Assembly: GCF_003945235.1 (NCBI RefSeq)
Contig: NZ_RSDW01000001.1
Location: forward strand, 4,260,001 to 4,292,000
Direction: 5' to 3'
DNA length: 32,000 nucleotides
Origin: Edaphobacter aggregans
Lineage (GTDB): Bacteria > Acidobacteriota > Terriglobia > Terriglobales > Acidobacteriaceae
A program made the position numbers and the translations under genes. Within the stretch, counting starts at the first letter, position 1. Every line of letters starts with the position of its first letter. The notes under the pieces were generated by a model. It worked only from the letters and a program-made list of their open reading frames with translations. It was not told the DNA's origin and searched no databases. Positions 5,027-29,485 of this stretch are shown here, piece after piece.

Positions 5027-8000
5027 GAGAGTGGTTCAAGATGATCTCTCGGACATCCTTTCGATTCTGAATCCATTCGGCGGCGGTTCCCTTCCAGCCT
5101 CGTGGCGGAGTTGCAATTGGAATAGGCTGTACTGTACCTGGCTGATCGAGATAGTTCTTTAGGCAGCTCGTTGCCGTTTCGCGACCAAGCAAGCGATAGG
5201 CCTCAAACTGCGATTCATCGAACCATTGGTTGATCGTCGTCTCGTGCGGGAACTGTGCATTATCGCGGTCGAAGCTCTTGACGATAACCGAGCTTGCGCT
5301 TGCGACGGCCGGCTTCAGGTACAAAATGGTTCCCGACGAGCCATCGTTGTACTCGATACTGCCGATCGCGTACGAAGAGCGATTAAACTTCGAGTCGCCG
5401 TAGCTGAGTAGTCCGTCCGTGGGCAACGTAATGTTCGCACCAAAGTTGATTTGACATAGTTCCATGGCGTTGACCAGGTCCTCAAAGCGATAGTGAGGGT
5501 CGCAGTCTGCATCGCATAGAATGATTACTTTGCACTTACGGCGAACCAGCTCAAACAGGCCAAGATTCTCAAAATGGCCGCCATCGGAGAGATAGATGTA
5601 CTCACTCTTATCCGTGGCCTGCGCAAACAGTTCGTCGAGCATCGGCTTGAGTCCTGTCTTAGGACCCTCATCACATCTCGTACTGCGGTTGCGCGGATTG
5701 CCGAGCCACCAACCCAAGCGAACGTTGGCCGCTGTCATCAGTGCTGCAACAGCGGGCGAGGTATGGGCTCCTTCGTTCGGGCTCTGCGCCCCTCCTGAAA
5801 TCGCCATCGCGCTGCCTAGCGTAATGCTGTTCGAACTCTCCTGCGAGTCCGTCAGGGAAAGGGCAGGAGTGCCTTTCGAGGAGCAGAAGTCAGTCTTGAT
5901 CAATCCCGATTTTGCCAAAGGATCGTTCGAATCCAGCTGCTCGTCGGGGGAAGGGTAGCGGATATACCCGCAATAAACAGGCGAGAAAATAAAATTCATT
6001 GCCCGCCGTTTCTGCAAATCCAAGTTCCCGCTCTTGGTCACATTGAGAGTGCAATTGATGATAGGAAATGGTCCGTCAAATTTGTTGGATTCTGCTCGTT
6101 GAAGCGGGTCGACCTTTTCACCCTGATCTTCTTCTTGCTTCGCATCGGCAGTCAGCGATGCCATCGTGATGGTGGGTGCGCCGGTGCCTGCGCTCGCCGC
6201 GAGGTAGCACTCAATCAGGCGAAATCGATACACGTTGTGCAGCGATAGCCGGTTGACGTCGATCATCCGGCCCAACACAACAAGAAGGGCGACGGAGACC
6301 GCCAGAAAGATGTACTCCGGGCGTAGCCATACCTTCAATTGTTGGGGGATATAGCCTTCAACAGTCGCTAACAGCAAGTGGTTCAGGCTTGACAAGAGAA
6401 TTAAGAGTCCTAAGAGGAAGACGTACGGCGCAACGCGCGCCAGGAATCCCATGAACTGGTATTGGTCCCCACTAGGTTTCACCCTAACTATCCATGGTGT
6501 GGGATTGGACTCGGACGGAGCGGGCCCCCCAGTCTTTCCACTGTATGCGCTTAGCACGCCACCCACGGTAGTGAGAATCCAGCCCAAAAGAGCCGTAGCC
6601 CCTGGGAGTTTGTAGCCCCCGCGCAGATTGTATAGGTGCGGACCGACCCGCGCCATGAACTCAGGCCACAACAGTGCGAGCGACGCGACTCCGAGCCAAC
6701 CCAGAGTAAGAATGGCGGTGTCTCCCCATATGCGATTCAGCCACTCCTGTGCAGATGATTGAAAGGGTAAAAGAGCCATGCCTGCTGATGCCATTAACAC
6801 ATATGCCAGAAGCAGCAAAAGCGGAGCGGACGCTGCCGATAACAAGAGACCCGTCTCGAAATGATCGCCCAGGTCAAAGAATCGCGCGAGGAGGAAGGAT
6901 GATGCCCAAAAGCACAGCATGCCGATAATACCTGTACATACGAGCGAGACAATGGGTCTCCACCGATCGCTCGATTGAAGCCTCTTCAGCAGGCCCGGGA
7001 ATGCCCCAACCCGGTACGTAAAAAAGACCACGCATAGAAAAGAGATGAGAAAAAATCCCCACGGAATGGCAGGGTGGTAGCCCGAAACATAGTCAAGGCG
7101 TCGGGCGAGGCCCACTCCAACTACAACCGGCCCGAATAGCAGAACAGCAAAGAAAGTAGTAAAGGCGTGCTTTGCCGCCGCTCGTCGTGAAGCCGTGGCG
7201 TCCTTTGGGTTATAGCCTAACCCTGAGGGGAAAAGCATTATGAATAGTCCCGCTCCAGCGAAGAGTCGGATGCGCCACGCTGTACTAATCCAGTGAGGAT
7301 CCTCAGGAAGTCGCCAACTATAAGACTGAAGGCGACTAGCCTGCTTATCAAGACCATCGGTAAGAGATTTGAGCATCTTCAGGGCCGACCGCGGAAGTGC
7401 CTGAGCATCATCAAGAATCGGTAGGTCAGTGACGATACTCTGCACGACTTCGTTGACAGCTTTCGATTGTCTTTCTTCCGCCGATAGTACCTCTCCACAG
7501 GGTGGAACGTGTGCGGTACCTTCGTGTAGTTGGCCACTGGCAATAGATAGAGGAAACCAGCGGCAAAGATCATTCTTCACGGATTCCAGCGTTGCTACTG
7601 CCTCTGGATTGGGTCTTCCGTTGGAGCCGAGAATCTGCTCGTATCCCTTGCTGATACTGTTTCCGACCTCATTCATTGCGCGTGTTGTCGCTTGGTCCAC
7701 CTTAAGATCCGGAATGCAATCTATATCTGATATCGACTTACAGGCCGCCAGCTCCGCCGAGGTAAGCTTGGCTTTAAGATCGGCAAGAGACGCTTTCACT
7801 ACCCATCCTTCGCCCGGGTAGTAGGGACTCTTGTCTAGAAAGGTTCGCATCTTGTCTTCCAGCACACTGCGGGGCACGTCTGGAGATTGACTCGAACCCG
7901 ATTTCTGTCTTAGCTCAAGCTCGTTTCTCAGAGCCGTCAATGCCGTCTCAACGCTCTGGTCCACATAGAGAGAGGGTTTCGTGCGGAACGCTTCGAGGTG

Positions 8001-8798
8001 ATTGATTTTTTCGAGGAGCAGTTTCTCTTCAGGCGATACTGAATCCGGTTTCATTTGTTTGCTCGATTGTGCGGAGGCCATTGCCGCTTGAAGCTCAAGC
8101 GTCTGTCGGACGACCGCTCCAAACGCATTATCGCGGTCATCATCGAAGGTTCCAGTATGCCCAATACCCTTCAATTCTTCTCCGACATCACGCCGTAGTT
8201 GTAGATTGAGGCTGTTCGCTGCCTTGCGTGCATATTCTCCTGAGGTCATCTTGAAGAGGTCTCGCGCGATATAGGGAGCAACTACCAGGATCAAGGCCAG
8301 GAGGGCGACAAAGAGAAGGTTAGGGAGCAGACGGAGCACATATGCGGCGACTGCCGTCCATACGTCGCTGCTCATCAGACCGCGCTGCGGTGTTAGATAG
8401 CTGCTGTAGCGGCGTAGATGGGTGACGGGAAGCTGATCTCGGTAACGATCTGCTGCATTACCCTGCTTATTCTCGTCGGCCAACGCTTTCGCCACATGGC
8501 CAATTCCATCCTTCCGAATCCATGAAGCAAGCCAAGAATTGATATAACTCCCACCCGATACGGAAGAGATATATCCAATCCGATGTAATAGACCGAAAGA
8601 CGCGAAAGCCTGGAGAACTCCGAGGTTAAAGGTGGCACTACGTATTCCTCCCCCTGAGAAAGCCACGCCAATCGCTCGGTCCGGCGGCGCTTGCGGGTCA
8701 CGCCGTTTACGAACGTTCTCGAACCAGGTTTGCTCTCCAGAGAGCAATATCGACTCGATGGATTTGAGATCCTGCTCCGTACCACCCCGTTCTTCCAT
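4995..8798 (-). CDS. patatin/cPLA2-like phospholipase with a very large membrane-embedded insertion
   Basis: 1267 aa. Motifs: FSGGGIRS (G49-G-G-x-R53), SVSGGS (Ser81 codon 8556-8558) and LSDGGHFENLG (Asp1072 codon 5583-5585). About 10 hydrophobic 20-30-aa segments and a ~320-aa charged helical region lie between them. GGAG lies 9 nt upstream of the ATG at 8798. Confidence 0.88.
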   Translation of the reverse strand: MEERGGTEQDLKSIESILLSGEQTWFENVRKRRDPQAPPDRAIGVAFSGGGIRSATFNLGVLQAFASFGLLHRIGYISSVSGGSYINSWLASWIRKDGIGHVAKALADENKQGNAADRYRDQLPVTHLRRYSSYLTPQRGLMSSDVWTAVAAYVLRLLPNLLFVALLALILVVAPYIARDLFKMTSGEYARKAANSLNLQLRRDVGEELKGIGHTGTFDDDRDNAFGAVVRQTLELQAAMASAQSSKQMKPDSVSPEEKLLLEKINHLEAFRTKPSLYVDQSVETALTALRNELELRQKSGSSQSPDVPRSVLEDKMRTFLDKSPYYPGEGWVVKASLADLKAKLTSAELAACKSISDIDCIPDLKVDQATTRAMNEVGNSISKGYEQILGSNGRPNPEAVATLESVKNDLCRWFPLSIASGQLHEGTAHVPPCGEVLSAEERQSKAVNEVVQSIVTDLPILDDAQALPRSALKMLKSLTDGLDKQASRLQSYSWRLPEDPHWISTAWRIRLFAGAGLFIMLFPSGLGYNPKDATASRRAAAKHAFTTFFAVLLFGPVVVGVGLARRLDYVSGYHPAIPWGFFLISFLCVVFFTYRVGAFPGLLKRLQSSDRWRPIVSLVCTGIIGMLCFWASSFLLARFFDLGDHFETGLLLSAASAPLLLLLAYVLMASAGMALLPFQSSAQEWLNRIWGDTAILTLGWLGVASLALLWPEFMARVGPHLYNLRGGYKLPGATALLGWILTTVGGVLSAYSGKTGGPAPSESNPTPWIVRVKPSGDQYQFMGFLARVAPYVFLLGLLILLSSLNHLLLATVEGYIPQQLKVWLRPEYIFLAVSVALLVVLGRMIDVNRLSLHNVYRFRLIECYLAASAGTGAPTITMASLTADAKQEEDQGEKVDPLQRAESNKFDGPFPIINCTLNVTKSGNLDLQKRRAMNFIFSPVYCGYIRYPSPDEQLDSNDPLAKSGLIKTDFCSSKGTPALSLTDSQESSNSITLGSAMAISGGAQSPNEGAHTSPAVAALMTAANVRLGWWLGNPRNRSTRCDEGPKTGLKPMLDELFAQATDKSEYIYLSDGGHFENLGLFELVRRKCKVIILCDADCDPHYRFEDLVNAMELCQINFGANITLPTDGLLSYGDSKFNRSSYAIGSIEYNDGSSGTILYLKPAVASASSVIVKSFDRDNAQFPHETTINQWFDESQFEAYRLLGRETATSCLKNYLDQPGTVQPIPIATPPRGWKGTAAEWIQNRKDVREIILNHSHGEAADARRA

Positions 8799-9226: not shown

Positions 9227-10852
9227 CTATTTAGGCGCTAAGATGCTGTTTAGTGCCGACAGGTCATAACTGAAGCCAAACTGCCCTTTCCAGTCACTGT
9301 CGCTAAGCAGATCAGTTTTATTAGACCATTTAACAGCAACGGGGATAGAGGCGCCCTTACCAATGTTGAAGACCAACTTCGTCTGAGCGATACTCAACCA
9401 ACCGGGTGTACTAGTAAAGACCTGTGAGTTGGATGGAACCGAGATGTTAGTTCCGGGCACTACATTTGCTACGGTTATATTGAGGACATTGGCGGTGTAC
9501 TGATACTGTCCATAACCAGCAAGACTAAAAATCGCGCGTGGAGCACTCTTGTCTTTGCCGAAAGGGTGGTCATACTCTCCAGTGAACTGATAATCCTTAA
9601 CTTTGCCGTACTTCGCGCCTGGCGGAATTGTTGCGAACCATGAGCCGGCTACGTTGAACGTAAGCTGGTCGCCGCTCTTCTGCCACACATATGCGAAGAC
9701 GGCGGTCGCATCGTGTGTGGCTGGTTTGCCAGTAGGTGTGGAATAGGTATAGCTAAGCGTCGCGAAAGTGCCACGTGCTTGTTGAAGAATATTATCGCGA
9801 AGGGTTTTCAATTTAGCTAGGTCCGCACCAACCGCTACAATATTCTGCTCATAGTTCGGCCCCGCGTTCGACTTCAATGCTGCGACGTACACCGTCATGT
9901 ATGCAATGAAGTCGTCCACGAACTTGTCAAAATTATTTTCAGCCTCGTCCTGTTCTGCGGCATGCTGCCAGTCAGCACGTGCTGCAACGACTTTCGAATC
10001 ACCATTCACTTTGTCGGAATTTGGAAATGCCTTCTGGTAGTCCGTGTAAAGCTGGTTTGATGCGTTTGTAATTGCGGTTTGGGTATCCTTATCGCCGATT
10101 GCTTTGTTCCAAGCACTAACGAATTTCGTTGAGGTCGGGTTATACCGCCGGTTGATGGTTCTGCTCACACTGAGCGAACTGAACGACACATTATTTGATG
10201 GGATAAGAACACTGAGGATGTCAGTGGGTGTAGTAGAAGTCGCCTGGCCTGTGGTAGATGCAGCAGCCGAGCCGCTCTGGGCAACATTGAACGTGGCGGC
10301 AAGGGTGAAAGGCTGCAGTATTTTATCTGCGGTCTTGGGTCCTTGCGCTGTGGCAGCGAAATTATCACCCGAAAGATAACGGCGCAGACCATTCATGTTT
10401 GCCCTCGCCGTCAGAGTAGTACCGTTAACTGTTTGGGTGAAAGCGCCCGATTCAGCTGCTAGCGATATTAGGTCAGTCGTCGTGGGCTTTGCCCCCAGGC
10501 TGGTCGATCCACTTGCACTCGTGTTCGCTCCGGCTTGGGGAACCGCTGCCTTCGTGGAAATAACTTGTGCTACTTGGTTAGCTGCGGCTTGTAACACAGT
10601 TGCTCCGAAGGCCGCGTCGAAAAGAACACTTACAGTTGGTATTGGCTGGTTAAGAGGGTCCAAGAGGGTAGGTTCTGCGCCGCCCTTCGCAAATCTTTGG
10701 TCTTTAAACTCTTTCTGAAGTATTCCGCAAAATGAGCTGGCGATCTTTCCTTTCTGGTCGCAAGTGCTTTGTGGGGATTGAGCTGATGCCCCAGAACTTT
10801 GCAGAGATACTAATAACGCGAAAGCCAACTGCAGTCTGACGGGTAACTTCAT
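9227..10852 (-). CDS. secreted protein with beta-barrel-like C-terminal region, function unknown
   Basis: From the second Met the N-terminus is MKLPVRLQLAFALLVSLQSSGASA|QSP, a classic signal peptide with an AxA site, and GAGG lies 6 nt upstream of the ATG at 10852. The track start at 10897 is the alternative. The last ~190 aa show alternating hydrophobic strands (AIFSLAGYGQYQY, KLVFNIG, IPVAVKWSN, WKGQFGFSYDL). Confidence 0.7.
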   Translation of the reverse strand: MKLPVRLQLAFALLVSLQSSGASAQSPQSTCDQKGKIASSFCGILQKEFKDQRFAKGGAEPTLLDPLNQPIPTVSVLFDAAFGATVLQAAANQVAQVISTKAAVPQAGANTSASGSTSLGAKPTTTDLISLAAESGAFTQTVNGTTLTARANMNGLRRYLSGDNFAATAQGPKTADKILQPFTLAATFNVAQSGSAAASTTGQATSTTPTDILSVLIPSNNVSFSSLSVSRTINRRYNPTSTKFVSAWNKAIGDKDTQTAITNASNQLYTDYQKAFPNSDKVNGDSKVVAARADWQHAAEQDEAENNFDKFVDDFIAYMTVYVAALKSNAGPNYEQNIVAVGADLAKLKTLRDNILQQARGTFATLSYTYSTPTGKPATHDATAVFAYVWQKSGDQLTFNVAGSWFATIPPGAKYGKVKDYQFTGEYDHPFGKDKSAPRAIFSLAGYGQYQYTANVLNITVANVVPGTNISVPSNSQVFTSTPGWLSIAQTKLVFNIGKGASIPVAVKWSNKTDLLSDSDWKGQFGFSYDLSALNSILAPK

Positions 10853-10920
10853 AAACGACCTCACTGGAATGGGTTTAAGACCGTGGGCTGTGAGCATTTG
10901 AGCGCATGGGGTGGACGCTA

Positions 10921-11277
10921 CTAAGCGCCTAAGATGTTGGGGCTCCAGATAGCCAAACCGCCAAAAAATTCGATATCACCTTCGAGTTCAAGCGGCGGCT
11001 TACCTACCGCACTTGGCGGCTGCTGGGCAGTCGCAAATCCATCCGTAGAGTTAGGCGAAAACAGAGTAATCTGCAGAAGATTGTTGCCAGCCAGGATGGT
11101 CAGATCAAATGTTTTCCCATCAACTTTGATCGGGACTGGGATTGGTCCGTTAGCGTTCGTTCCGTATAGCACGCTGACGATGCTGATGACGGTTGTTGGA
11201 TCATCGGGGACGATTTCGATCGTCTCGACTTTCCCTGTTGTGCTTTGCAGGTCACCTGGGACTTGCTGGAGTGCCAT
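10921..11277 (-). CDS. 118-aa beta-rich hypothetical protein, first gene of the lipase cluster
   Basis: GGAGAAAG lies 6 nt upstream of the ATG at 11277. No signal peptide and no recognised motif. The plus-strand ORF 10934..11293 is its shadow. Confidence 0.55.
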   Translation of the reverse strand: MALQQVPGDLQSTTGKVETIEIVPDDPTTVISIVSVLYGTNANGPIPVPIKVDGKTFDLTILAGNNLLQITLFSPNSTDGFATAQQPPSAVGKPPLELEGDIEFFGGLAIWSPNILGA

Positions 11278-11904
11278 GGCTTTCTCCGATTGAAATTACT
11301 CTGCTTGAAAATAGGGTTGTAAGAATTTGAGACGCAATCCGGAAAAAGGGAGGAGTACTCGGTCTAATATGACGACCTAGTCCGCGTGGGCACATAAGGT
11401 GATCACAATGAGCTTCACGTTTCTCCGTAAATCCGAAGTCCCAAATCAATGGCGATGCATTTGCTGTCTGTCAAACAAGAGAACGAGGCAAACGAGGCAT
11501 TTCCTTTTGTAAAAAAAAAGAAAAAGTGTGGAACATTCCTAGTGTCTGCAAAAACTGTTCGATCACCTTCGGAGTGGGTAGCTACTGTGGTGGGGTCCAG
11601 CCGCCGTGAGTATTTATTGGTTTGCCATCCTCAACGAAAAATCGCTCGGCTACTAAGCCGACGTCCCAATAGTGCGAGCGGCAGTTCCTTCACTTGACAC
11701 CGTTGCAGTGCAAATTACGGTGCTCCTGGTTATCGACAATCCTTCATCTGCTAAGCGAAGGCCGCTTACTTGATACCGGAGAGGTGCGATGGGCCGGAGA
11801 AATCAACCGAGCTTGAGCGCTGGCAAACCTGCGTAAACCAAAAAAATTAGCCACAAATGAGGCCACTCGTCCTACAATGATTTCGTCAACCACTAAGCAA
11901 TCGA

Positions 11905-12552
11905 ATGACCACGAACCCGCTCGCTGCTGCAGAGATCGTCAAAGCATGCTTGGAGTCCGAGAATGAGACGCCGTGGACGACATTCGTTCAGTATTTCCAG
12001 CCTCTGATTGCGTCTAGTGTCTCCCGCGTTCTCCGACGCTACGGTCACGCGAACCCGTCTTTGGCCGATGACCTAATCCAAGAGACCTATCTTCGCCTTT
12101 GCAGAGATAATTGCCGAGTCCTCCGGGACTTTCAGGCGAAGCATGACGAAGCCATCTTTGGCTATATCAAGGTCATCGCCACATCAGTTGCGCTAGATCA
12201 CTTTCGCGCCCGCGCCACTCACAAGCGCCGGGGCGAAGTCGAAGACGACGGCACAAATCTCGAAGGCAGCACAGCTTCTTCCACCATTGAGCAAAGCTTG
12301 CTTCTCAAAGAACTCGATCGACGTCTGGCATCCACTGAGAATGAACGCGACCGTACGATTTTCTGGCTCTACTACCGTCAAGGTTATACCGCACGAGACA
12401 TTGCAGCGGTTCCCCAATTTAGGCTCACGCAAAAGGGTGTCGAAAGCTGTATCTACCGCCTCACACAATCTCTCCGCGATGCTGTCAGCAGTAAAGGTCC
12501 GGGTTTTACAAAAGGATTGCCGCCTCAAAATACGTTAGGAGTCATGAAATGA
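11905..12552 (+). CDS. ECF-type sigma-70 family RNA polymerase sigma factor
   Basis: 215 aa. Region 2-like DDLIQETYLRLCRD and region 4 HTH-like YRQGYTARDIAAV...LTQKGVESCIYRLTQSLR. Stop TGA 12550-12552 overlaps the next ATG (ATGA). Confidence 0.85.
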   Translation: MTTNPLAAAEIVKACLESENETPWTTFVQYFQPLIASSVSRVLRRYGHANPSLADDLIQETYLRLCRDNCRVLRDFQAKHDEAIFGYIKVIATSVALDHFRARATHKRRGEVEDDGTNLEGSTASSTIEQSLLLKELDRRLASTENERDRTIFWLYYRQGYTARDIAAVPQFRLTQKGVESCIYRLTQSLRDAVSSKGPGFTKGLPPQNTLGVMK

Positions 12553-15500
12553 GACCGCTGGAAGATCACCTCAGCCCGCAGGAGCTGGCTAGTCTTCCGG
12601 AATCACCGGAGGCTCTTGTATCTGTCGAGCAACAGGAGTCGACACGACATATCCAGCAGTGCGAAGCGTGCCACAACCTGGCGATGACTTACTGGAAGCT
12701 CCGGAGTCTCCACATAACGACTGGGGTTGTTGTCAGTAGCGACACCTGCCCTATTGAAAGCATTTGGCTCGAGTTAGCTGCGGGCTTTCGCTCTGAGCAA
12801 TCGCTGTCTCTACTGGCCCACGCAGCAAGTTGTAGCGTCTGTTCAACCCTTCTGCGAGAAGCAATGGACCTCATACAGTTTGACCAACTCGACGCATCGG
12901 GCGAAGCAGGGGAACTTATAGAAAATCTCTCCAGTGACAGGCCCGAATGGCAACATCGTATCGCCGAGCAGATGATGGTGGCCTCAGGCGCATCCCCTGC
13001 AGCAAAAGGCATCCGGGCGAAGCCCGCCACCGGCGTTCCAAGACTCAATTTTATTCATCGCCTACGCCATAGATCAGTGTGGATAACTCTGCCTGCAGCC
13101 GCTTTCGTACTCGGCGTTGTCGTCATGACTGGCGTCGCACTTTGGCGCACAATGCGCCCTTCAGAGGCCCGTTTGCTTGCGATCGCCTACAATAAGCAGC
13201 GGACAATGGTCTTGCGCATCCCGGGCGCCGATCCCGTTCCCCTTGCCTCGGGTACCCGTGGCTCCATGACGGGTCTCACCGACCCCACCGAGTTACTCGA
13301 ACTTCGGCTCCGCGCCCAAAAGCACCTCGATCAGACTCCCAACAGTTCCTATTGGCACCAGATCATGGGCGAGACTCAACTCCTCCAACAGGACGGCACT
13401 GCCGCCCGCCGCAGCTTCGAAATTGCCGAGACAACCAGTGAAAATCTTCCCGATCTCCGGCTGGACCTGGCGGCCGCCTGGTTTGAGATCGGAGATAAGA
13501 CTGGATCTGCCGAGGCCTACGCGGAAGCCGCGGAGCTTTATAGCAGGCTGCTTCGAGAAAAGCCCACAGACCCCGCACTCCTCTACTACAACCGCGCCCT
13601 TAGCTGGGAGCGTCAAAATCTAACTGAGAATGCCCTTGATGACCTTCGCGCGGCGCTACCCCTAGAGCGCTCGGCCGCCTGGCGCAAAGTGATCGAAGCG
13701 GAGATCGCCCGTCTTTCCGCGCAATCCTCCACAGTGACTACCGACGGTTACGAGATCTCACTCAACGTGGCCACGGAAAACCTTCTGCCTCATTGGAGCA
13801 ATTCCCCCGAAGCCCGAGCCAAGATCTCACAGACCGCCGCTCTCGGCCTCAGCCACCACGACCGTTGGCTATTCGACTGGATCGCCGCCAACCATTCCCC
13901 TATTAGTTTAGAAGCGGACTATCATCTCGCCGCGGCAGTTGCCTATGGTGAAGCCGGGGAAGCCGAATCATCTCTTACTGAAGCCCGCCGCGCAATTGAA
14001 CTTTACACAAGAGCCAACGAACATCCCGGGCTCCTCCGAGCCCAATTTGCCGAAATCTATGCCTTCCAACGGCTTGGGCGGGCGAAAGAATGCCTTCAAA
14101 GCATCGCAATCGTTAAGCCGAAAGCAGCTCTCAACAACTATGCATGGCTTCAATCGCAACTCTTCGTGGAACTAGGGGACTGTGAGGGACACATAGGCAA
14201 GTTTGAAGCAACTCAAGAGGATCTAGAACGCGCTCTTGCACTCAGTAAAGTCTTCGATCTACCTCTAATACGCTTGCGAGCTCTTAGCGCGGAGGCTTCG
14301 TTTCTTGACCTCCGCGGAATGACAACCTCTGCTTGGAGGCTTGATTCAATTGGACTACTACTATGCAGACAACTCGGATGTCCTCCCCTCCGGAGGTATG
14401 AGTTTATGTACAACATGGTTATGACTGCGGAGCGCCTTGAGTTGCCATTCGTCGCTGGGGATATCATGCGAACTGGAGCCCATCTCGCAGCGTTATTTCA
14501 AGACGCAACTGAGCATGCCTACGCATTGGAAACTCTGGGAACCGTTATTGGACAAGCTGGCGAGTACACGGAATCGACTCAAGCATTCACTCAGGCCCTC
14601 GCTATCGCTCGCGCTGGTAAACAAGGACCGATGTCCCCCCTTTATCAAGCCGACTGGCAAATAGATCGAGCTGAGATTCTCTCGCGCCAAGGAGCCCCCA
14701 AGGCAGCTTTGCGCCTACTCGAGCAAAATGGGCCAATTCTTCTCGCAAGTGATTATCAGCCCGCTCGCCTTCACTACCTGACCCAACTGGCGTCCGTAGA
14801 CCGGTCTCTTGGACACACAAACGAGGCGCTAACCAATAGTTGGATGGCTGTTCGCGAGGCCGAGCACTCTCTGGGCTCACTGCATACGACTACGGAACGT
14901 GAACAGTGGTCTCAGCAAAACAAAAAGGCATATGCCGAACTTGTCCGATGCTATCTCCAACTCGGAGAAGACACTGAAGCACTTCGAGCCTGGGAACGCT
15001 TTCGAAGCGCACCTTATATTTCAACGTCAACGGCAAACCTAATGAGAAGTTCGTCGAAGTCTACTTCGCCGAACACTATGGTGCTTGTTCTGGCTCGCAT
15101 TGATGACTCGTATATTGGCTGGATCGCCGTAGCTCATCCTCTCCGTGTTGTGCGAACAATATCACTCGGTGAGGGACCAAGATTACAGCAAATGGCAACG
15201 ATTTTCATTCGCCTTTGCTCTGATCCTAACTCCAATCTTAATGATGTCAAGGTCGTTGGTTCGCATCTGTATTCTTCTCTCCTCCAGCCATTAGGAATTC
15301 CACTAAACATCCCAAATCATCTTTGGATAGACGTAGATCCGAGTCTGGGAGCGATTCCCTTTTCTGCTCTCCTCCTTCCGAGTGGAGATTGGCTAGGTTC
15401 GTACTCCCAGATTAGCGTCCTACCAGCATGGTGGGTCCTTCATCCTGCAACCTCGTTTGAGGAACCCACTTTCACGTTTAACACGCACATGGTTGTTGCT

Positions 15501-16064
15501 AGCGGATTCGGTGCACATGAGTCTCTACAATCCCCGGTTGGCAGCTCAGAAGCGGCGGAGATCGCTCGGTTCTTCCCAGGAGCAACGCTGATAGACGGAC
15601 CCTCCGCCAACACTCAGGTGGTACTGCAGTCCATGAAGTCTGGCGACATCTTTCACTTTAGTGGTCATGCAACAAGTGAATCTGGTACACAACTTCTCTT
15701 GGGCTCATCAGATGGAGAGCGCCCTAACACTCTTACTGCCGGATCGATCGAATCGATCCACCTGCGCCACTGTAAGGTGGCAGTCCTTGCCGCATGCAAT
15801 ACGAACGCAGCAAATTCCGACCAAATTGAAAACTCCTCTGATCTCCGCAACGCGTTCCTTATCGCCGGAGCAAACTCAGTTGTCGCTAGTAACTGGGATG
15901 TTGACGACAAGAGCACCCATATTTTGATGATGGCCTTTTACAACCAGCTCGTTATCGGAGTTACCCCCGCTCAATCACTTCAAACCGCACAGCAGTCTTT
16001 GCGGAATGGATCAACCTGGCAACATCCCTATTACTGGGCCTCATTCGAGATCTTTACCAACTAA
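12549..16064 (+). CDS. anti-sigma (HxxxCxxC zinc motif) - TM - TPR - CHAT (caspase-like protease) fusion protein
   Basis: 1171 aa. AGGAG at 12537-12541 lies 7 nt upstream. HIQQCEAC (12648-12671) and HAASCSVC (12819-12842) both fit the ZAS HxxxCxxC pattern. TM helix VWITLPAAAFVLGVVVMTGVALW at ~13075-13146. Long helical repeat (TPR-like) region. C-terminal IFHFSGHA (His codon 15666-15668) and VAVLAACNT (Cys codon 15795-15797) match the CHAT His/Cys dyad context. Confidence 0.85.
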   Translation: MRPLEDHLSPQELASLPESPEALVSVEQQESTRHIQQCEACHNLAMTYWKLRSLHITTGVVVSSDTCPIESIWLELAAGFRSEQSLSLLAHAASCSVCSTLLREAMDLIQFDQLDASGEAGELIENLSSDRPEWQHRIAEQMMVASGASPAAKGIRAKPATGVPRLNFIHRLRHRSVWITLPAAAFVLGVVVMTGVALWRTMRPSEARLLAIAYNKQRTMVLRIPGADPVPLASGTRGSMTGLTDPTELLELRLRAQKHLDQTPNSSYWHQIMGETQLLQQDGTAARRSFEIAETTSENLPDLRLDLAAAWFEIGDKTGSAEAYAEAAELYSRLLREKPTDPALLYYNRALSWERQNLTENALDDLRAALPLERSAAWRKVIEAEIARLSAQSSTVTTDGYEISLNVATENLLPHWSNSPEARAKISQTAALGLSHHDRWLFDWIAANHSPISLEADYHLAAAVAYGEAGEAESSLTEARRAIELYTRANEHPGLLRAQFAEIYAFQRLGRAKECLQSIAIVKPKAALNNYAWLQSQLFVELGDCEGHIGKFEATQEDLERALALSKVFDLPLIRLRALSAEASFLDLRGMTTSAWRLDSIGLLLCRQLGCPPLRRYEFMYNMVMTAERLELPFVAGDIMRTGAHLAALFQDATEHAYALETLGTVIGQAGEYTESTQAFTQALAIARAGKQGPMSPLYQADWQIDRAEILSRQGAPKAALRLLEQNGPILLASDYQPARLHYLTQLASVDRSLGHTNEALTNSWMAVREAEHSLGSLHTTTEREQWSQQNKKAYAELVRCYLQLGEDTEALRAWERFRSAPYISTSTANLMRSSSKSTSPNTMVLVLARIDDSYIGWIAVAHPLRVVRTISLGEGPRLQQMATIFIRLCSDPNSNLNDVKVVGSHLYSSLLQPLGIPLNIPNHLWIDVDPSLGAIPFSALLLPSGDWLGSYSQISVLPAWWVLHPATSFEEPTFTFNTHMVVASGFGAHESLQSPVGSSEAAEIARFFPGATLIDGPSANTQVVLQSMKSGDIFHFSGHATSESGTQLLLGSSDGERPNTLTAGSIESIHLRHCKVAVLAACNTNAANSDQIENSSDLRNAFLIAGANSVVASNWDVDDKSTHILMMAFYNQLVIGVTPAQSLQTAQQSLRNGSTWQHPYYWASFEIFTN

Positions 16065-16082
16065 ATCCTATATTGGAGAACA

Positions 16083-17096
16083 ATGCACATGCATTACTCG
16101 CGTCGCTCAATTTTGCGCAAAGCTGCCCTTGTATCAGCCGCCGGTGTAGCCTACACTAATCCGCTTATTCTCCTTGCCCAGAGTCCGGCAAAACGAGCAG
16201 CATCTACTCCCCCTCCTCCGTTTCAACCAGGAATTCGTATTTTCTTTTCGGGGTCTTGGCTCTTCTGTTCAGAGAATAATAACCCGGGCTGGATGAGAGC
16301 GATCGCTCAGGACATGCCGCGAGTTCCACATACCTTTGCCTATGGTGTGTGGACGCCTGGTTGGAATGACGCAACCACAAAGTCACTACACTCGAACTCA
16401 AATCCAAGTGGTGGCCAACCGGGCATCATTCCACATAAGGTCAAGGTGTCCGTGGGCTCCAAGCCTTTCGGGTCAAGCTTTACTACTGTCAATGACCTGT
16501 TTGCTTATACTGCCTGCACAGACCCTTTTACATACCTGCCAAGCAAAGATATAAAGTACTCCGTTGACTTCAACGCACGTAATCTTCGGGTCATCTCTGT
16601 TCCTATTCCATCAAGTATCATTCCGGCTGCCTTCCTCAGATCCGCATCGATTAGGAACCCTCAAAAGCTTCTTTATACGTTGCCTCAAGGGTGCGTGTTG
16701 TCCCAGTCTGGAGTCGCGACAACGCATATCTTTGACTACCCTGCAGCAACTTCCCTGACCCTCACGCTAAACACTGGTACCGCCGACACTGCGAGCCAGC
16801 AGGATCATTATCACTTTCACACAACTGCGATCTCAGACACACCGTTCGACCACGCTCCGATGATGTTCGATAATCTGCTGGGCCTCATTAGAGGCTTCGA
16901 CCAGAACAACCTAGGATTGCTCAACCCCAATCCAGAATCTATTGACATAGGAGACAACGTCCCAGCGAGTGTTTCGGGGGACGAATTGGAGATTACCTCT
17001 GCTGGTGCCTCAGCTACCAAACCCAAGGAAGTTACCTATTCGACTCACGCAAGACTCGCTACCTGCGCGGGGGGAGCCCTCGCGCTGGGCGATTGA
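16083..17096 (+). CDS. Tat-signal exported protein, function unknown
   Basis: 337 aa. The N-terminus MHMHYSRRSILRKAALVSAAGVAY fits the twin-arginine S-R-R-x-(F/I)-L-K pattern. GGAG at 16075-16078. Starts 18 nt after the CHAT gene stop. Confidence 0.7.
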   Translation: MHMHYSRRSILRKAALVSAAGVAYTNPLILLAQSPAKRAASTPPPPFQPGIRIFFSGSWLFCSENNNPGWMRAIAQDMPRVPHTFAYGVWTPGWNDATTKSLHSNSNPSGGQPGIIPHKVKVSVGSKPFGSSFTTVNDLFAYTACTDPFTYLPSKDIKYSVDFNARNLRVISVPIPSSIIPAAFLRSASIRNPQKLLYTLPQGCVLSQSGVATTHIFDYPAATSLTLTLNTGTADTASQQDHYHFHTTAISDTPFDHAPMMFDNLLGLIRGFDQNNLGLLNPNPESIDIGDNVPASVSGDELEITSAGASATKPKEVTYSTHARLATCAGGALALGD

Positions 17097-17884: not shown

Positions 17885-19187
17885 ATGGCAATTCAAAGAC
17901 TAAGCGATTTCTTCGGAGTAAGTGATTCGGCCTTGGCGCAACAAGGTGTGATAAACGCAGCGATCAGCGTGGACAATCGATTTTTTATTGAGCCGCGTCT
18001 GTTGTTTCATACCAAAAATTCCTTTTTTCGTTGATGCAGCAGCCAAAATAGAGAGTTATTTTCAACGCGTCATCTCGCTACTCAACGCTTCTAAAAGAGA
18101 AGGCGACATCGCTTGGATCGCTGCGTGCAAGTTGCTCCAATTTGGCGAACCGCAAGGATTTGCGCTCGGGTATGGTGTGCATAAGCCTAATGGGCGCGGT
18201 GTGGGGCCTACTCTCGCAGCAGGCCTCGCATCTAGAGCTCAGCAAATATTAAAGCTTGGAGTTGATGATCCTTTGATATTCGAGGTAATAGAACTGTTTA
18301 CCGATGGTATTGGACCGGATCTTATCAGTGATACCCAAGCGAGTATCCTGGAGGAAAATTTCCTCGCATACAGCCAGGACATAGCTAACAAACTGAAAAT
18401 CACAAATCGAGTGACCCGAATTATTCAAGATCGCTCGTACTCTATACCCGCTGGCCCTAATGGGCGAGGAATAATTTTATTGCCCGCAGAGTTCCTGACC
18501 CCCCTTCCCATCGAAATGCCTTGGGAATCAATAGAATATGCGACGGCATTGGATGATTCGGTTCGTAAACAGCTCAGCGAACTGTTTGCATTAGCTGCAA
18601 AAAGGCCGAAGAAATCTGAGGTTGCGAACATAATTTTTCCACATCGGGATGTTCTAGAACGTCTGCTGAAATCGTTTAGAGAGAGCGTAGGAGCAAAATA
18701 CGACTTCGAAAACGATCCAATGGGCGTTTTAAGATGGTTCGAGGTAGCTCTGAATGCCGTTCAAGCTAATCCTGAAAAGATAGGTCTAGAACGTCGGGAT
18801 GCAGCTGGACTAGTCGATGTCGTGAATAAGATAACGCTAAAGTTCAAACAGAATGTTGAGCAAAATGGACTCTGGAAAGAGTTTTATCGTGAAGACCTTC
18901 GCCCAAAACATGAACGCTTTGGACACCTTGTTTTTTATGCAATTGCGGATGCCTACTGTGATGCAAATAACCTCGACATAAGCAGAGAAAGCAATGGAGG
19001 TAATGGTCCCGTTGACTTCAAACTTAGCCAAGGAGCTGATTTTAAATATTTAGTAGAAATGAAGTTATCGACGAATCCAAAATTACTAGATGGTTATACG
19101 GTGCAGCTTGATGCATATGCGGCTAGTGAAAAGGCAGAGAAGAAATCACTGGTTGTCATTAAACTTAATGGAAAGGGACGCAATTAG
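17885..19187 (+). pseudogene. RecB/Cas4-type PD-(D/E)xK nuclease-domain protein, interrupted by a +1 frameshift in a homopolymer region
   Basis: ATG 17885 (AAGGAG 17868-17873) opens a 49-codon frame, MAIQRLSDFFGVSDSALAQQGVINAAISVDNRFFIEPRLLFHTKNSFFR*, with its stop at 18032-18034. The 399-aa track ORF (17988..19187) is open in the +1 frame across the overlap. Total length is 1303 nt (3n+1). Removing one base in A5 (18014-18018) or T6 (18023-18028) fuses the frames. The C-terminus has D (19014-19016), E-M-K (19056-19064) and Q-L-D-A-Y (19104-19118). Confidence 0.65.
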
Positions 19188-19513: not shown

Positions 19514-19954
19514 ATGGCGATCCCGAGCCGCACCGCCAGACCCGGCACCTACTTCATCACCACAGCCACTCACAACCGCCGCCGACTCTTTCAGGTCGAG
19601 CGCAACGCCGCCCTCCTCCTCGAAACCATCGACCATTACCGCACCAGCTATCTCCTGCACGCCTACGTCGTCATGCCCGACCATCTGCACCTACTCATCA
19701 CCCCAACCGACATCACTCTCGAGCGAACCATGCAGCTCATCAAGGGCGGCTACTCCCACCGCCTCGCCTCCAAACTCCCCGTCTGGCAGCGAGGCTTTAC
19801 CGACCACCGCATCCGCGACGACGCCGACTACAACGTCCGCCGCAACTACCTTCATCAAAACCCGGTCCCGCCCGCCTCTGCGAAAGCACCGAATCCTACC
19901 CATTCTCTTCAGCCAATCCAAAAGTTGCGGCTCGACGAGTACCTCAGCGGCTGA
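19514..19954 (+). CDS. REP-associated tyrosine transposase (RAYT, IS200/IS605 TnpA-like Y1 HUH enzyme), C-terminus probably frameshifted
   Basis: 146 aa. HUH motif in VVMPDHLHLLITP. Catalytic Tyr context RRNYLHQNPV. The expected continuation (ARLCESTESYPFSSA) is found in the -1 frame from ~19870. Confidence 0.8.
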   Translation: MAIPSRTARPGTYFITTATHNRRRLFQVERNAALLLETIDHYRTSYLLHAYVVMPDHLHLLITPTDITLERTMQLIKGGYSHRLASKLPVWQRGFTDHRIRDDADYNVRRNYLHQNPVPPASAKAPNPTHSLQPIQKLRLDEYLSG

Positions 19955-20045: not shown

Positions 20046-20414
20046 TTATTCGAGCGAAGCTCGAACCGCGTTGCCCAAACGCAATTCAGCCACTAGCTGC
20101 TTGAGTTTTGCGTTCTCCTGTTCAAGCTCGTACAGCCTCTGCATCCGCTCCTCGATCTTGGTGCGGTAAGTCTCGCCGCGATCTTGCGAAGCATCGACTT
20201 GCTTGGAGTTGCGCGAGCGCATTCCAAGCATCCGTGCGTGAACATTGGGACGGTATCCGAGCCTGGCCGCAGCCTCTTGAACACGCTCCCTCGTGGCCAG
20301 CTTCATGGCCTCCACGCCCGGCGCATTATTAAGCACGATCGAGATAGTCGCCGACGACAGGCCAAGATGCTCAGAAAGAGTCTTGAGCGTTACGGGTTTA
20401 GCGGTGTCCGTCAT
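20046..20414 (-). CDS. LacI-family HTH DNA-binding domain protein lacking the sugar-binding domain, with a C-terminal coiled coil
   Basis: From Met39 of the track ORF the sequence is MTDTAKPVTLKTLSEHLGLSSATISIVLNNAPG...ATRERVQEAAARLGYRPNVHARML, a typical LacI/PurR N-terminal HTH plus hinge. It is followed by EERMQRLYELEQENAKLKQLVAELRL. The start could also be the ATG at 20432. The last codons are encoded by REP element X'. Confidence 0.7.
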   Translation of the reverse strand: MTDTAKPVTLKTLSEHLGLSSATISIVLNNAPGVEAMKLATRERVQEAAARLGYRPNVHARMLGMRSRNSKQVDASQDRGETYRTKIEERMQRLYELEQENAKLKQLVAELRLGNAVRASLE

Positions 20415-20474
20415 TCCATTAGACCAGTCCATCCAACAGACAGTACCGATACGGTACCCATGGATTAATCGACA

Positions 20475-20490
20475 AGACAAACGTTTGTCT
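20475..20490. promoter_or_regulatory. Candidate LacI-type operator: perfect 16-bp palindrome AGACAAACGTTTGTCT
   Basis: Perfect palindrome with a central CG, 61 nt upstream of the ATG at 20414. It fits the general LacI/PurR-family operator shape (..AAACGTTT..). It is flanked by a second inverted pair, aatcga/tcgatt. Confidence 0.5.
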
Positions 20491-20599
20491 AAATCGATTG
20501 AATTCAATATAAGTACTGTCGTTTCCATGTGTCAAGAGAGGGAATCGGAAGGTATCTATTTCAGTGACGAATGGGGCGGGTGGCCCATATCTGAGCCGG

Positions 20600-24376: not shown

Positions 24377-24425
24377 GGTGGCACTCTTCGAGCTGTCGCC
24401 CTTGGTTCTCGAATAAACTAGCCGC

Positions 24426-24974: not shown

Positions 24975-25049
24975 ACCAGAGTCGGGCGACCTGCCGACTC
25001 GCTAAACCGTGGCGAACAAAGCACGAAGAAATCCGCGCTACAATACACC

Positions 25050-29483: not shown

Positions 29484-29485
29484 CG

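Follow-up and report, generated by a model that had tools for sequence, protein, structure and literature searches.

The three genes described here lie on the forward strand of a 32,000-nucleotide stretch of DNA (the window) from Edaphobacter aggregans, a soil acidobacterium, and encode an ECF sigma factor, a putative transmembrane anti-sigma factor and a predicted exported partner protein (Table 1). All three open reading frames and both junctions reported in a first-pass annotation, made from the sequence alone, were present: the sigma stop codon and anti-sigma start codon overlap as ATGA (12549-12552), and an 18-nt gap with a GGAG Shine-Dalgarno sequence inside it separates the anti-sigma gene from the partner gene. 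The same annotation had remarked on the absence of CRISPR components, and the window indeed contained no CRISPR-like repeats, cas genes or PADLOC matches; CBASS or other defence genes were not found nearby, and the flanking genes at distant loci of the family were housekeeping genes. Homologues (E about 1e-8 to 1e-26) of a divergently placed 556-aa protein in the window are Sec-signal proteins located a few genes downstream of the module elsewhere (L001, L002, L003 and L035), which makes it an occasional neighbour whose membership in the system is uncertain.

Table 1. Features of the locus, numbered from the first nucleotide of the window
Feature	Position	Strand	Basis
Secreted 556-aa protein, divergently placed, possibly associated	9227..10897	-	homology to neighbours of the module elsewhere
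Conserved -10-like box TACAAT	11873..11878	+	lies 32 nt before the sigma start codon
Gene for a 215-aa ECF sigma factor with a DdvS-like role	11905..12552	+	profile matches, family synteny
Putative transmembrane anti-sigma factor with predicted periplasmic TPR-CHAT region, DdvA-like (1171 aa)	12549..16064	+	homologues, DdvA match
N-terminal accessory zinc-motif segment A (H7 ... H34-x3-C38-x2-C41)	12567..12671	+	homologue alignment, model register
Core zinc anti-sigma motif B (C67 ... H91-x3-C95-x2-C98), CHCC type	12747..12842	+	invariant ligands
Conserved cytoplasmic helix between zinc motifs and TM segment	12927..12983	+	invariant columns, model helix
Single TM helix (residues about 179-202)	13083..13154	+	hydrophobicity, model helix 180-202
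Juxtamembrane segment, predicted periplasmic (LLAxAYxxQRxxxLRIPG ... RG)	13161..13268	+	invariant residues
Helical scaffold and TPR superhelix (residues about 247-831)	13287..15041	+	weak TPR profiles, AlphaFold2 model
CHAT caspase-like domain, dyad H1040 (15666-15668) / C1083 (15795-15797)	15066..16061	+	PF12770, invariant residues
Exported partner protein gene (337 aa)	16083..17096	+	Tat-like motif, family synteny

Domain architecture of the three gene products

The sigma factor matched TIGR02937 (sigma70-ECF; 6e-13) and Sigma70_r2 (2.9e-6) above their curated cut-offs, as the first reading of the gene had led us to expect, and also Sigma70_ECF (1e-4). Its family profile matched AlgU and RpoE structures and, as far as sequence can tell, the protein is of a generic RpoE/AlgU-like type. 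A TAnAAT box occurred in 35 of the 43 upstream regions of the family (shuffled sequences: mean 6.6, maximum 14). Apart from two outliers, it lies 19 to 35 nt before the sigma start. The exact element at this locus, TCCTACAATG, is located at 11870-11879, and the box may act as a promoter. The GTAA-n16-CGT promoter motif of the DdvS/DdvA system was not present here, and no ECF-type promoter or regulon was identified.

Both HxxxCxxC motifs first noted in the 1171-aa protein were recovered, HIQQCEAC from residue 34 and HAASCSVC from residue 91. The motif B ligands C67, H91, C95 and C98 were invariant in 23/23 homologues and resemble the DdvA ligands (C6, H28, C32, C35; PMC11506125) in type and spacing; the profile match of segment B to the DdvA NMR structure 8rlz was weak and not significant (E=1). 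About 20 of the 23 homologues in the alignment had segment A, one with Ser in place of C38, and it was truly missing from a Silvibacterium protein; by locus, 29 possessed the tandem zinc motif and 14 were without motif A. The two segments aligned in register (hhalign E=3e-4, probability 39%) and the helix register of segment A in the model is ZASD-like. Pfam zf-HC2 and RskA profiles, from which the first-pass annotation had anticipated a hit, gave no match on the N-terminal region even at E<=10. Assignment as an anti-sigma factor was made because the C-x23-H-x3-C-x2-C pattern is invariant, the model register agrees, zf-HC2 scored in two relatives (L042, 1.5e-6; L053, 4.9e-9) and the sigma gene directly upstream is conserved; the N-terminal domain would be the part that binds sigma. 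Closer to the membrane, L127, W134 and A139 are invariant in a helix modelled at residues 132-145.

The single transmembrane helix proposed earlier was supported by the hydrophobicity profile, in which residues 179-199 form the one strong segment and the highest window (Kyte-Doolittle 2.17), together with the helix of the model. Net flank charges of +4 on the N side and +1 on the C side favour an N-in orientation, which would place the N-terminus inside and the TPR-CHAT region in the periplasm. The juxtamembrane segment that follows has eight invariant residues (L209, L210, A211, Y214, R218, L222, R223 and R237) and may serve in dimerisation or as a site of cleavage. Helical repeats between membrane and CHAT domain, also part of the initial description, were upheld by the AlphaFold2 model, where they run unbroken through residues 247-831 (about 585 aa and about 30 consecutive helices, pLDDT around 90); their naming as TPR fared less well, as TPR profiles gave weak matches only. 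The CHAT domain itself was confirmed by PF12770 (4.4e-39, residues 903-1167), with a weak Peptidase_C50 match over the Cys region. The two proposed catalytic motifs were located as described, HFSGH at residues 1036-1040 (CAT codon for H1040) and LAACNT at residues 1080-1085 (TGC codon for C1083). H1036, H1040 and C1083 were invariant, and the dyad was kept in 23/23 homologues down to 24% identity.

The 337-aa protein carries the Tat-like motif SRRSILRK at residues 6-13 together with a hydrophobic region, the predicted Tat signal covering about 16083-16181, and twin-arginine motifs were kept in homologues. Pfam, NCBIfam and PADLOC searches of this protein returned no matches and its AlphaFold2 model had no usable fold (pLDDT 35).

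The family in Acidobacteriota and its relation to DdvA

Full-length homologues of the anti-sigma factor numbered about 36 at 39-57% identity, and there were further ones at 24-27%. The Acidobacteriota family comprised 43 surveyed loci and 801 cluster representatives, while DdvA-like proteins had been reported before from Myxococcota and one Comamonas only, indicating that the family is far more widespread and varied than reported. The suggestion that ECF sigma genes neighbour such fusions was substantiated, as 41 of 43 loci have a sigma homologue directly 5' of the anti-sigma gene, and sigma identity (72% down to 35%) declines in parallel with anti-sigma identity. CHAT proteins without the N-terminal module had no adjoining sigma gene. 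Partner homologues sit 3' of the anti-sigma gene across the family with Tat or lipoprotein signals, and the partner subgroups are homologous to one another (hhalign probability 96.4% and 86%). Export signals were assigned by eye in about 31 of 43 loci (14 Tat, 16 lipoprotein, 1 Sec); about 7/43 partners had no signal peptide, a poor fit to a strictly periplasmic partner. The exported neighbour is a conserved third gene of the family, which agrees with its original description as a candidate partner or substrate.

In a two-protein variant (L087-L090), the sigma gene and a short ZASD-TM anti-sigma gene adjoin the gene for a membrane-anchored TPR-CHAT protein without a ZASD, which is followed by the partner gene. 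The dyad and surrounding motifs are kept in the separate CHAT proteins, and the juxtamembrane segment occurs in both membrane proteins, as would be predicted if the protease acts on the anti-sigma factor in trans.

The best natural PDB match of the family profile was DdvA of Myxococcus xanthus (8rot_B, E=2.7e-18; CHAT-only profile, E=2e-9), which was also the top Foldseek match (8rot_A, E=3e-16, TM 0.62 over about 1000 columns) in comparison to Csx29 (TM 0.35-0.42) and separases (0.23-0.32). The Foldseek alignment paired the region of residues 247-831 with the DdvA scaffold-TPR region. The dyad proved to align with catalytic positions, H1040 with DdvA H862 and the VLAAC cysteine C1083 with that of DdvA, C907 by spacing. 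Identity to DdvA is about 15% and a single-sequence phmmer search does not retrieve it, so that the whole architecture may have a shared ancestry or may have arisen by independent fusion of similar domains. The architecture is not new, and the locus is best described as a distant relative of DdvS/DdvA (NAR 2018; Sci Adv 2024, by cryo-EM; PMC6061681, PMC11506125; PDB 8ROT, 8RW5, 8RLZ). The idea that an anti-sigma factor fused to an extracytoplasmic TPR-CHAT region gates or reports on sigma release fits our evidence; it is also in essence the published working model of DdvA/DdvS (PMC11506125), and the novelty implied in the first-pass annotation did not stand for a system known since 2018 and solved in 2024.

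Possible routes of sigma release

DdvA binds DdvS via its ZASD, RseP degrades DdvA once the TPR-CHAT domain is removed, and the CHAT active site of one protomer is turned towards the linker of the other (PMC11506125). Considering the observed gene order, domain architecture, zinc-ligand and dyad conservation, three-gene linkage and fold relationship to DdvA, we give a probability slightly above even (about 0.55) to the locus being an acidobacterial relative of DdvS/DdvA in which CHAT cuts the anti-sigma factor in trans to free sigma. The proteolytic steps, every one of which we infer, would proceed from an ECF sigma factor held at the inner membrane face by the zinc-binding N-terminal domain, with the bulky periplasmic scaffold-TPR-CHAT region blocking intramembrane cleavage in the resting state. 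A periplasmic signal, probably involving the exported partner, would switch on the caspase-like site, and active CHAT would make the site-1 cut in trans, in the juxtamembrane region of an adjacent anti-sigma molecule. Removal of the anti-sigma factor would then be completed by an RseP-type site-2 protease together with cytoplasmic proteases, and the freed sigma factor would transcribe its regulon.

A tentative alternative, plausible though distinctly the less probable, is that CHAT acts on the 337-aa partner instead of the anti-sigma factor, with sigma release following indirectly; the partner could be a substrate reporting periplasmic state or a securin-like inhibitor or pseudosubstrate. Only the sigma gene is a better conserved neighbour than the partner gene, the usual Tat or lipoprotein signal of the partner would bring it into the compartment of the TPR-CHAT region, and in the two-protein variant its gene comes after the CHAT gene and not after the anti-sigma gene. 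Separase, which is structurally related, has the pseudosubstrate securin as its regulator (PMC11506125), and the M. xanthus operon has a protein of undefined function directly after ddvA. Against this reading, no fold could be predicted for the partner, and some partners have no signal peptide. Cleavage of the partner is also compatible with self-cleavage in trans, as both could be steps of one pathway. It is rather unlikely that CHAT is a non-catalytic sensor or steric plug, where TPR-CHAT merely binds a signal and shields the anti-sigma factor from RseP, and regulated intramembrane proteolysis is initiated by a separate DegS- or Prc-like site-1 protease or by a purely conformational signal. 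Ligand binding is a typical function of TPR arrays, and genes for other cysteine peptidases recur in the vicinity of these loci, of the Peptidase_C11 type in L089 and of the C25 type in M. xanthus. For DdvA itself proteolysis was not demonstrated, the active site was described as incomplete and in resting geometry, and dyad mutants were wild type-like in unstimulated cells (PMC11506125). Against this, the His-Cys dyad and its motifs are invariant down to 24% identity, also in the separate CHAT proteins, which is hard to explain without catalysis.

The two zinc-type motifs, the second of them invariant, could alternatively reflect a mainly cytoplasmic release of sigma by an RsrA/RslA-like redox or zinc switch with TPR-CHAT unrelated or modulatory, and zinc-ligand mutations in DdvA lead to weaker DdvS binding and an active regulon, ROS having been proposed as a second input (PMC11506125). 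We consider this very unlikely, since zinc has a purely structural role in many membrane-bound anti-sigma factors of the ZAS type, 14 loci do without motif A, and the strict linkage to TPR-CHAT and partner and the two-protein variant would be left unexplained. Descent of the locus from the type III-E craspase module (RpoE, Csx29, substrates), as a degenerate or CRISPR-independent offshoot, has scarcely any likelihood; an echo of that module had framed the first-pass annotation. Both systems pair an ECF-type sigma factor with a TPR-CHAT protease, and Csx29 structures were significant Foldseek matches (E about 1e-9 to 1e-11). That framing failed on the far better fold match to DdvA, the membrane anchor and predicted location of the protease outside the cytoplasm, the generic AlgU/RpoE-like sigma factor, and surroundings free of CRISPR features in the window and of housekeeping type at distant loci.

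Comparison with known systems

The craspase module (Csx29, RpoE, Csx30/Csx31) resembles this locus in coupling a TPR-CHAT caspase-like protease of related fold to ECF-type sigma control. Csx29 is soluble, cytoplasmic and bound to Cas7-11/gRAMP; target RNA activates it, and its substrate, Csx30, is a distinct anti-sigma-like protein. The protease here, in contrast, is fused to the anti-sigma factor, membrane-anchored and predicted to be periplasmic, with no accompanying cas genes or CRISPR array. Class I zinc anti-sigma factors (RsiW, RslA, RseA/MucA type) share the single-pass topology, the cytoplasmic N-terminal H/C-x(23-26)-H-x3-C-x2-C motif, the upstream sigma gene and an extracytoplasmic domain expected to block the site-2 protease; they differ from the 1171-aa protein in that its extracytoplasmic domain, of about 970 aa, is predicted to be a protease in its own right, its zinc motif is in tandem and Pfam zf-HC2 is silent on it. 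Separase (Peptidase C50) likewise has a helical/TPR scaffold followed by a caspase-like domain and gave significant Foldseek matches, but it is a eukaryotic cytoplasmic/nuclear enzyme with low global TM, and a securin-like role for the partner would be only an analogy. ECF54 sigma genes adjoin CHAT, subtilase and carboxypeptidase proteins and proteolytic control has been proposed for them (PMC8999054). The likeness is one of gene context. ECF54 has been described without an anti-sigma factor (PMC8999054), whereas the CHAT domain here belongs to a putative one.

DdvS/DdvA is the closest of these systems, having the sigma gene immediately upstream in the same operon, an N-terminal CHCC zinc motif, a single TM helix, a large periplasmic scaffold-TPR-CHAT region of the same overall fold (here predicted) and nearly equal dyad spacing (43 residues here, 45 in DdvA). 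The M. xanthus operon also has one gene of undefined function after the anti-sigma gene, a likeness of position. The cytoplasmic part here is about 178 aa with two HxxxCxxC motifs and an extra conserved helix, in comparison to about 70 aa and one motif in DdvA, and this locus is without CBASS or CRISPR neighbours. What our analysis adds to the DdvS/DdvA system is a range extending into the phylum Acidobacteriota, a tandem zinc motif in most members, a third gene encoding a conserved Tat or lipoprotein partner, and the two-protein variant.

Organisation and annotation of the module

The ECF sigma, anti-sigma and partner genes of the window constitute a divergent acidobacterial form of an already characterised type of system, DdvS/DdvA of Myxococcus xanthus, which was described in 2018 (PMC6061681) and for which cryo-EM and NMR structures were reported in 2024 (PMC11506125). 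DdvA, encoded after the ECF sigma factor DdvS, is an anti-sigma factor that spans the membrane; its zinc anti-sigma domain is cytoplasmic and its TPR-CHAT region periplasmic (PMC6061681, PMC11506125). The first-pass annotation had proposed that sigma release is tied to a caspase-like protease, a functional idea that proved sound, but the novelty it attached to this kind of system does not hold given the structurally characterised DdvS/DdvA pair. The three open reading frames and the ATGA overlap that it reported were recovered at the same positions, as were both zinc motifs, the single transmembrane helix, the CHAT domain with its HFSGH and LAACNT motifs, and the Tat-type signal (Table). Profile checks agreed with its sigma factor assignment, whereas the zf-HC2/RskA profile match it predicted for the N-terminal region was missing even at E<=10. 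TPR profile matches on the 1171-aa protein were weak.

Table. Features of the window and of variant loci (L-numbers denote loci in other surveyed genomes)
Feature	Location	Strand	Details
ECF sigma gene	11905-12552	+	215 aa; TIGR02937 6e-13, Sigma70_r2 and Sigma70_ECF above cut-offs
Anti-sigma gene	12549-16064	+	1171 aa; ATGA overlap with sigma gene
Partner gene	16083-17096	+	337 aa; 18 nt after anti-sigma gene, GGAG Shine-Dalgarno ahead
HIQQCEAC	residue 34 of 1171-aa protein		segment A, H34-x3-C38-x2-C41
HAASCSVC	residue 91 of 1171-aa protein		segment B
Hydrophobic segment	residues 179-199 of 1171-aa protein		sole strong one
CHAT domain	residues 903-1167 of 1171-aa protein		PF12770, 4.4e-39
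HFSGH	residues 1036-1040 of 1171-aa protein		H1040 is the His codon named by the first-pass annotation
LAACNT	residues 1080-1085 of 1171-aa protein		C1083 is the Cys codon it named
TAnAAT box	11873-11878		equivalents in 34 other loci; often TTGTAAAAT or GTAGAAT
Patatin-like gene and overlapping 489-aa gene	3557-8798	-	1267 aa, with N-terminal patatin-like phospholipase domain, and 489 aa
556-aa protein gene	9227-10897	-	Sec signal; divergent pair with next gene
118-aa protein gene	10921-11277	-
399-aa protein gene	17988-19187	+	lowest-GC stretch of the window (0.45)
IS200-like Y1 transposase gene	19514-19954	+	after 399-aa gene
LacI-type ORF	20046-20528	-	160 aa; helix-turn-helix only (residues 56-95)
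High-GC stretch	24000-30000		GC 0.60-0.66
Lhr-type large helicase gene	25050-29483		1477 aa; strongly negative GC skew
Signal-less genes after anti-sigma	L005 10531-11277; L025 10517-11479; L027 10594-11481
Signal-less genes after anti-sigma	L036 1077-1952; L038 8880-9815; L039 4982-5773
Signal-less genes after anti-sigma	L045 10462-11409; L053 8587-9465; L059 3799-4596
Two-protein loci	L087 1925-8093; L088 3799-8933; L089 744-7038; L090 229-3355

The closest database entry for the anti-sigma factor is a 791-aa Edaphobacter aggregans 'CHAT domain-containing protein' that matches the C-terminal 68% of the ORF with 100% identity. The public record accordingly starts at V381 (equivalent to position 13689) and leaves out the zinc motifs, the transmembrane helix and the juxtamembrane domain. 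All 1171 residues are spanned by approximately 36 Acidobacteriota homologues with 39-57% identity and by a second tier with 24-27%, so the long ORF is the real gene. This exposes an annotation problem in which a public start at residue 381 conceals the anti-sigma part of the protein.

Within the N-terminal region, the segment B residues C67, H91, C95 and C98 are invariant family columns (C-x23-H-x3-C-x2-C), and in the AlphaFold2 model C67 precedes a helix, H91 ends the next, C95 lies in a loop and C98 starts a third helix, the same register as that described for DdvA. Of 23 aligned homologues, about 20 have segment A, and across the surveyed family the tandem motif was found in 29 loci and a single motif in 14; a Silvibacterium protein whose ORF abuts the sigma gene truly lacks segment A. 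The two segments can be aligned to each other in register (hhalign E=3e-4, probability 39%) and agree in helix register in the model; a tandem anti-sigma-like domain is plausible, although this falls short of proof. The N-terminal family profile searched against the PDB returned RsiW and the DdvA N-terminal domain as its top two matches at only E=0.37 and E=1, values that are suggestive only. A conserved helix (L127, W134, A139) follows the zinc motifs, and the model places the transmembrane helix at residues 180-202 with flanking charges of +4 on the N side and +1 on the C side. The TPR-CHAT region is predicted to be periplasmic on two grounds, the positive-inside rule and the requirement that the putative zinc anti-sigma domain can reach the sigma factor.

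Upstream of the sigma gene, a TAnAAT box was located 19-35 nt before the start in 35 of 43 regions, whereas shuffled sequences averaged 6.6 with at most 14, and one subclade also has an upstream AATCTTTTCAC-like block. The box suggests that the operon may be transcribed in a housekeeping manner. Unlike DdvS, whose dependent promoters, including that of its own operon, have the motif GTAA-n16-CGT, the family carries this motif in 0/43 upstream regions, and GAAC...CGT was likewise absent from them; promoter specificity is a feature of DdvS itself and not necessarily of the family. No real -35/-10 motif emerged when the regions ahead of 43-44 sigma genes were searched for a bipartite ECF-type promoter; the top k-mer pair (CGCGC...TGAC) was the conserved 3' end of an upstream gene in one subclade. 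No regulon can be proposed, since the -10-like element is not repeated elsewhere in the window.

Several features of the surrounding DNA were also recorded. PADLOC, Rfam and repeat scans of the window were all negative, with neither cas genes nor CRISPR-like repeats, in agreement with the earlier reading that cas genes and a CRISPR array are absent. The divergently transcribed 556-aa protein has a conserved C-terminal W-G-x-Q-F-G-h-S-Y motif, and members of its family lie a few genes downstream of the module in four loci (L001, L002, L003, L035), always after a small protein; the family is a possible target of the sigma factor. The 118-aa protein has no detectable relatives, and no relationship was detected between it and the small proteins preceding the 556-aa family elsewhere. 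The patatin-like domain (E=7e-6) falls just under the Pfam cut-off, and its gene overlaps by 32 nt that of a 489-aa protein lacking a family match, forming a two-gene unit upstream of the module that PADLOC did not match. The 399-aa protein gave weak matches to defence models (EruA C-terminus, E=0.03; PADLOC PDC-M36A, E=2e-4), and the LacI-type ORF beside the transposase has no sugar-binding domain and may be a gene fragment. Outside the high-GC stretch, the GC content of the remaining window is about 0.50-0.55. The close loci L001-L003 have neighbours of mobile or defence type (GmrSD_N, FRG, Hen1/PNKP, integrases, HNH, RtcB).

Gene linkage and the exported partner

Our locus survey took one genome per species and comprised 80 loci plus five from encoding contigs; the family set was defined as the 43 loci encoding a protein that matched the window anti-sigma factor at E<1e-33. 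A homologue of the window sigma factor lies directly upstream in 41 of these, the remaining two ending at contig ends, and sigma identity drops from 72% to 35% in step with that of the anti-sigma factor. Most of the CHAT proteins that matched the C-terminal domain only were TPR-CHAT proteins secreted by means of a signal peptide and not accompanied by a sigma factor, indicating that sigma linkage is specific to proteins with the N-terminal module. Four loci from Myxococcales, Comamonadaceae and Thermomonas (L050, L057, L060, L068) were rejected as DdvA-like candidates, because their TPR-CHAT proteins have signal peptides and are secreted, and a sigma factor is missing from these loci.

All full-length relatives belong to the Acidobacteriota (Terriglobia, Bryobacteraceae, Pyrinomonadaceae, Ca. 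Angelobacter, Ca. Acidiferrales and Vicinamibacterales). When the first 300 residues were used as the query of an exhaustive search, 801 cluster representatives were retrieved at E<=1e-3, the number falling to 375 at E<=1e-10. DdvA is the only TPR-CHAT anti-sigma factor characterised so far, and its authors, using BLASTP with >50% coverage, gave the range of DdvA-like proteins as Myxococcota and one Comamonas (PMC11506125), a search that the acidobacterial family would have escaped because its identity to DdvA is only about 15%. The family is much larger than the literature states, and it includes informative split forms.

The gene following the anti-sigma gene nearly always encodes a protein of 290-350 aa (43 loci). 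In the window this partner begins MHMHYSRRSILRKAALVSAAG, a twin-arginine signal in which YSRRSILRK followed by AALVSAAGVA fits an S/T-R-R-x-F-L-K-like motif and hydrophobic region. Close homologues and a second subgroup keep the arginine pair, and lipoprotein signals (for example LATLFLIACQQ) take its place in others; inspected by eye, the 43 partners comprised 14 with twin-arginine signals, 16 with lipoprotein signals, one with a Sec signal, seven with none and five that were unclear. A similar first strand follows the signal in all partners (IRIFFSGSWLF, VFVVFEGPWAF, LQILLEGAFAV), and profile comparisons by hhalign linked the window-like group to the second Tat group (96.4%, E=1e-9) and to the lipoprotein group (86%, E=5e-6), and the lipoprotein group to the Tat group (96.9%), which supports homology among the subgroups. 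Few residues are invariant, namely G57, H83, P174, P176, Y219 and a Cys some 10 residues before the C-terminal end. The partner matched nothing in Pfam, NCBIfam or PADLOC, an AlphaFold2 model from eight sequences gave no confident fold (pLDDT 35), and its profile obtained only two matches in a collection of 5.8 billion proteins.

A minority of loci have, behind the anti-sigma gene, a gene that opens with the conserved first strand without a recognisable signal, and these ORFs cannot be extended upstream. The signal-less group resembles the partner family only weakly (64% by hhalign across about 50 columns), and its products are either not exported or only weakly related to that family.

Two-protein variants and mechanistic readings

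Matches to the N-terminal module included a recurrent class of 385-400 aa that represents complete short anti-sigma factors, with both zinc motifs, the conserved helix, the transmembrane helix, the juxtamembrane segment and a few TPR-like helices, and with an end that corresponds to about residue 390 of the window protein. The V381 start point of the public record falls where these stand-alone forms end. In each of the four contexts analysed (L087-L090) the short anti-sigma gene follows a window-related sigma gene (E=1e-48 to 1e-52) and adjoins a gene for a membrane-anchored protein that lacks the zinc domain, matches window residues about 193-1169 and contains the juxtamembrane segment, the TPR superhelix and CHAT with its dyad. 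Where the contig permits, a lipoprotein of the partner family follows the CHAT gene (L087, E=1e-7; L088, 3e-5). In L089, a Peptidase_C11 (clostripain-like) gene lies directly after the short anti-sigma gene. The fused window protein and the two-protein pair represent two arrangements of the same components. The juxtamembrane domain is kept in both membrane proteins of the pair, as expected if the protease acts on the anti-sigma factor in trans within a membrane-proximal dimer. This comparative evidence, which is not proof, points to possible trans action on the anti-sigma factor, as proposed for the DdvA homodimer. In the DdvA dimer each active site faces the linker of the other protomer (PMC11506125), an arrangement with which the shared juxtamembrane domain of the variant would be consistent.

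The best-supported reading for the window module is the DdvA model, in which the cytoplasmic zinc domain would sequester the sigma factor, the periplasmic TPR-CHAT region would block RseP, and a signal would induce a site-1 cut, after which intramembrane proteolysis would set in. Experiments on DdvA have shown that it binds its sigma factor and that the truncated protein is lost in an RseP-dependent way, while the signal and the proposed self-cleavage are unproven (PMC11506125). For the window module, the analysis establishes architecture, conservation and gene linkage; we infer both the proteolytic step and the signal. The main rival holds that the partner, and not the anti-sigma factor, is the substrate or inhibitor of the protease, and this reading and the DdvA model may be parts of one pathway. 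A CHAT domain without catalytic activity is unlikely because H1040 and C1083 are invariant in the aligned homologues, and a purely cytoplasmic redox switch would leave the gene linkage unexplained. The framing of the first-pass annotation, which cast the module as an echo of the type III-E pairing of RpoE with TPR-CHAT, is not supported, as the sigma factor is of a generic AlgU/RpoE-like kind and the protease resembles DdvA more closely than Csx29.

A broader proposal extends the DdvA model to a large unrecognised acidobacterial family in which a sigma factor is combined with a tandem-zinc anti-sigma factor bearing a periplasmic TPR-CHAT region and with a dedicated exported partner acting as a sensed ligand or securin-like inhibitor of the caspase-like protease, with the split variants revealing CHAT as a site-1 protease in trans; this full combination is tentative, and we give it roughly three chances in ten. 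If true, the DdvA-like design would be common in soil Acidobacteria, usually away from defence islands, and would represent a general envelope-signalling device and not a phage-defence speciality. The partner, as a candidate signal, substrate or inhibitor, would offer a new handle on the mechanism, the invariant juxtamembrane segment would be a candidate cleavage or dimerisation site, and the split variants would allow a direct test of trans cleavage by mixing components.

Comparison with DdvA and type III-E systems

Family profiles were needed for structural comparison, since single-sequence phmmer searches of the PDB with the fusion protein and the sigma factor gave nothing useful. A profile of 23 full-length homologues identified DdvA (8rot_B, 991 aa) as the top natural PDB protein (E=2.7e-18), and a CHAT-only profile also ranked it first (E=2e-9). 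The AlphaFold2 model of the anti-sigma factor (pTM 0.74, pLDDT about 90 over the periplasmic part) returned 8rot_A (E=3e-16, TM 0.62, over about 1000 columns) and 8rw5 (E=7e-16, TM 0.61), with TM values normalised to DdvA, as its top Foldseek matches in the PDB, in comparison to TM values of 0.35-0.42 for craspase Csx29 and 0.23-0.32 for separases.

The cytoplasmic part is about 178 aa in the window protein versus about 70 in DdvA, whose zinc centre is a single CHCC set (C6, H28, C32, C35; PMC11506125), and a second motif, H7...H34-x3-C38-x2-C41, precedes the invariant one. The juxtamembrane segment LLAxAYxxQRxxxLRIPG...RG is highly conserved, whereas the equivalent DdvA region is described as a flexible linker. 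Two loci of more distant relatives, from Vicinamibacterales, have a compact DdvA-like layout, with a sigma-like gene overlapping the start of a zf-HC2-TM-TPR-CHAT gene (zf-HC2 at 1.5e-6 in L042 and 4.9e-9 in L053). Unlike the M. xanthus system, the window module has no flanking defence genes, and distant family loci lie amid housekeeping genes; an adjacent CBASS or CRISPR-Cas island is not strictly defining, since only a subset of DdvA-like pairs adjoin defence systems according to the DdvA authors (PMC11506125).

Unlike type III-E loci, the window has no adjacent gRAMP/Cas7-11 gene or CRISPR array, and Csx29-type proteins are soluble cytoplasmic TPR-CHAT proteins of ~650-750 aa, whereas the window protein, at 1171 aa, includes both an N-terminal anti-sigma region and a transmembrane helix. 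As in DdvS/DdvA, the ECF sigma gene is directly upstream and co-oriented, and the predicted model has the periplasmic scaffold-TPR-CHAT fold of DdvA. The positions of the proposed catalytic dyad were borne out by profile alignment, in which H1040 pairs with the catalytic H862 of DdvA and C1083 with the Cys of its VLAAC motif (C907), with a His-Cys spacing of 43 residues versus 45 in DdvA and a Cys-to-C-terminus length of 88 versus 84.
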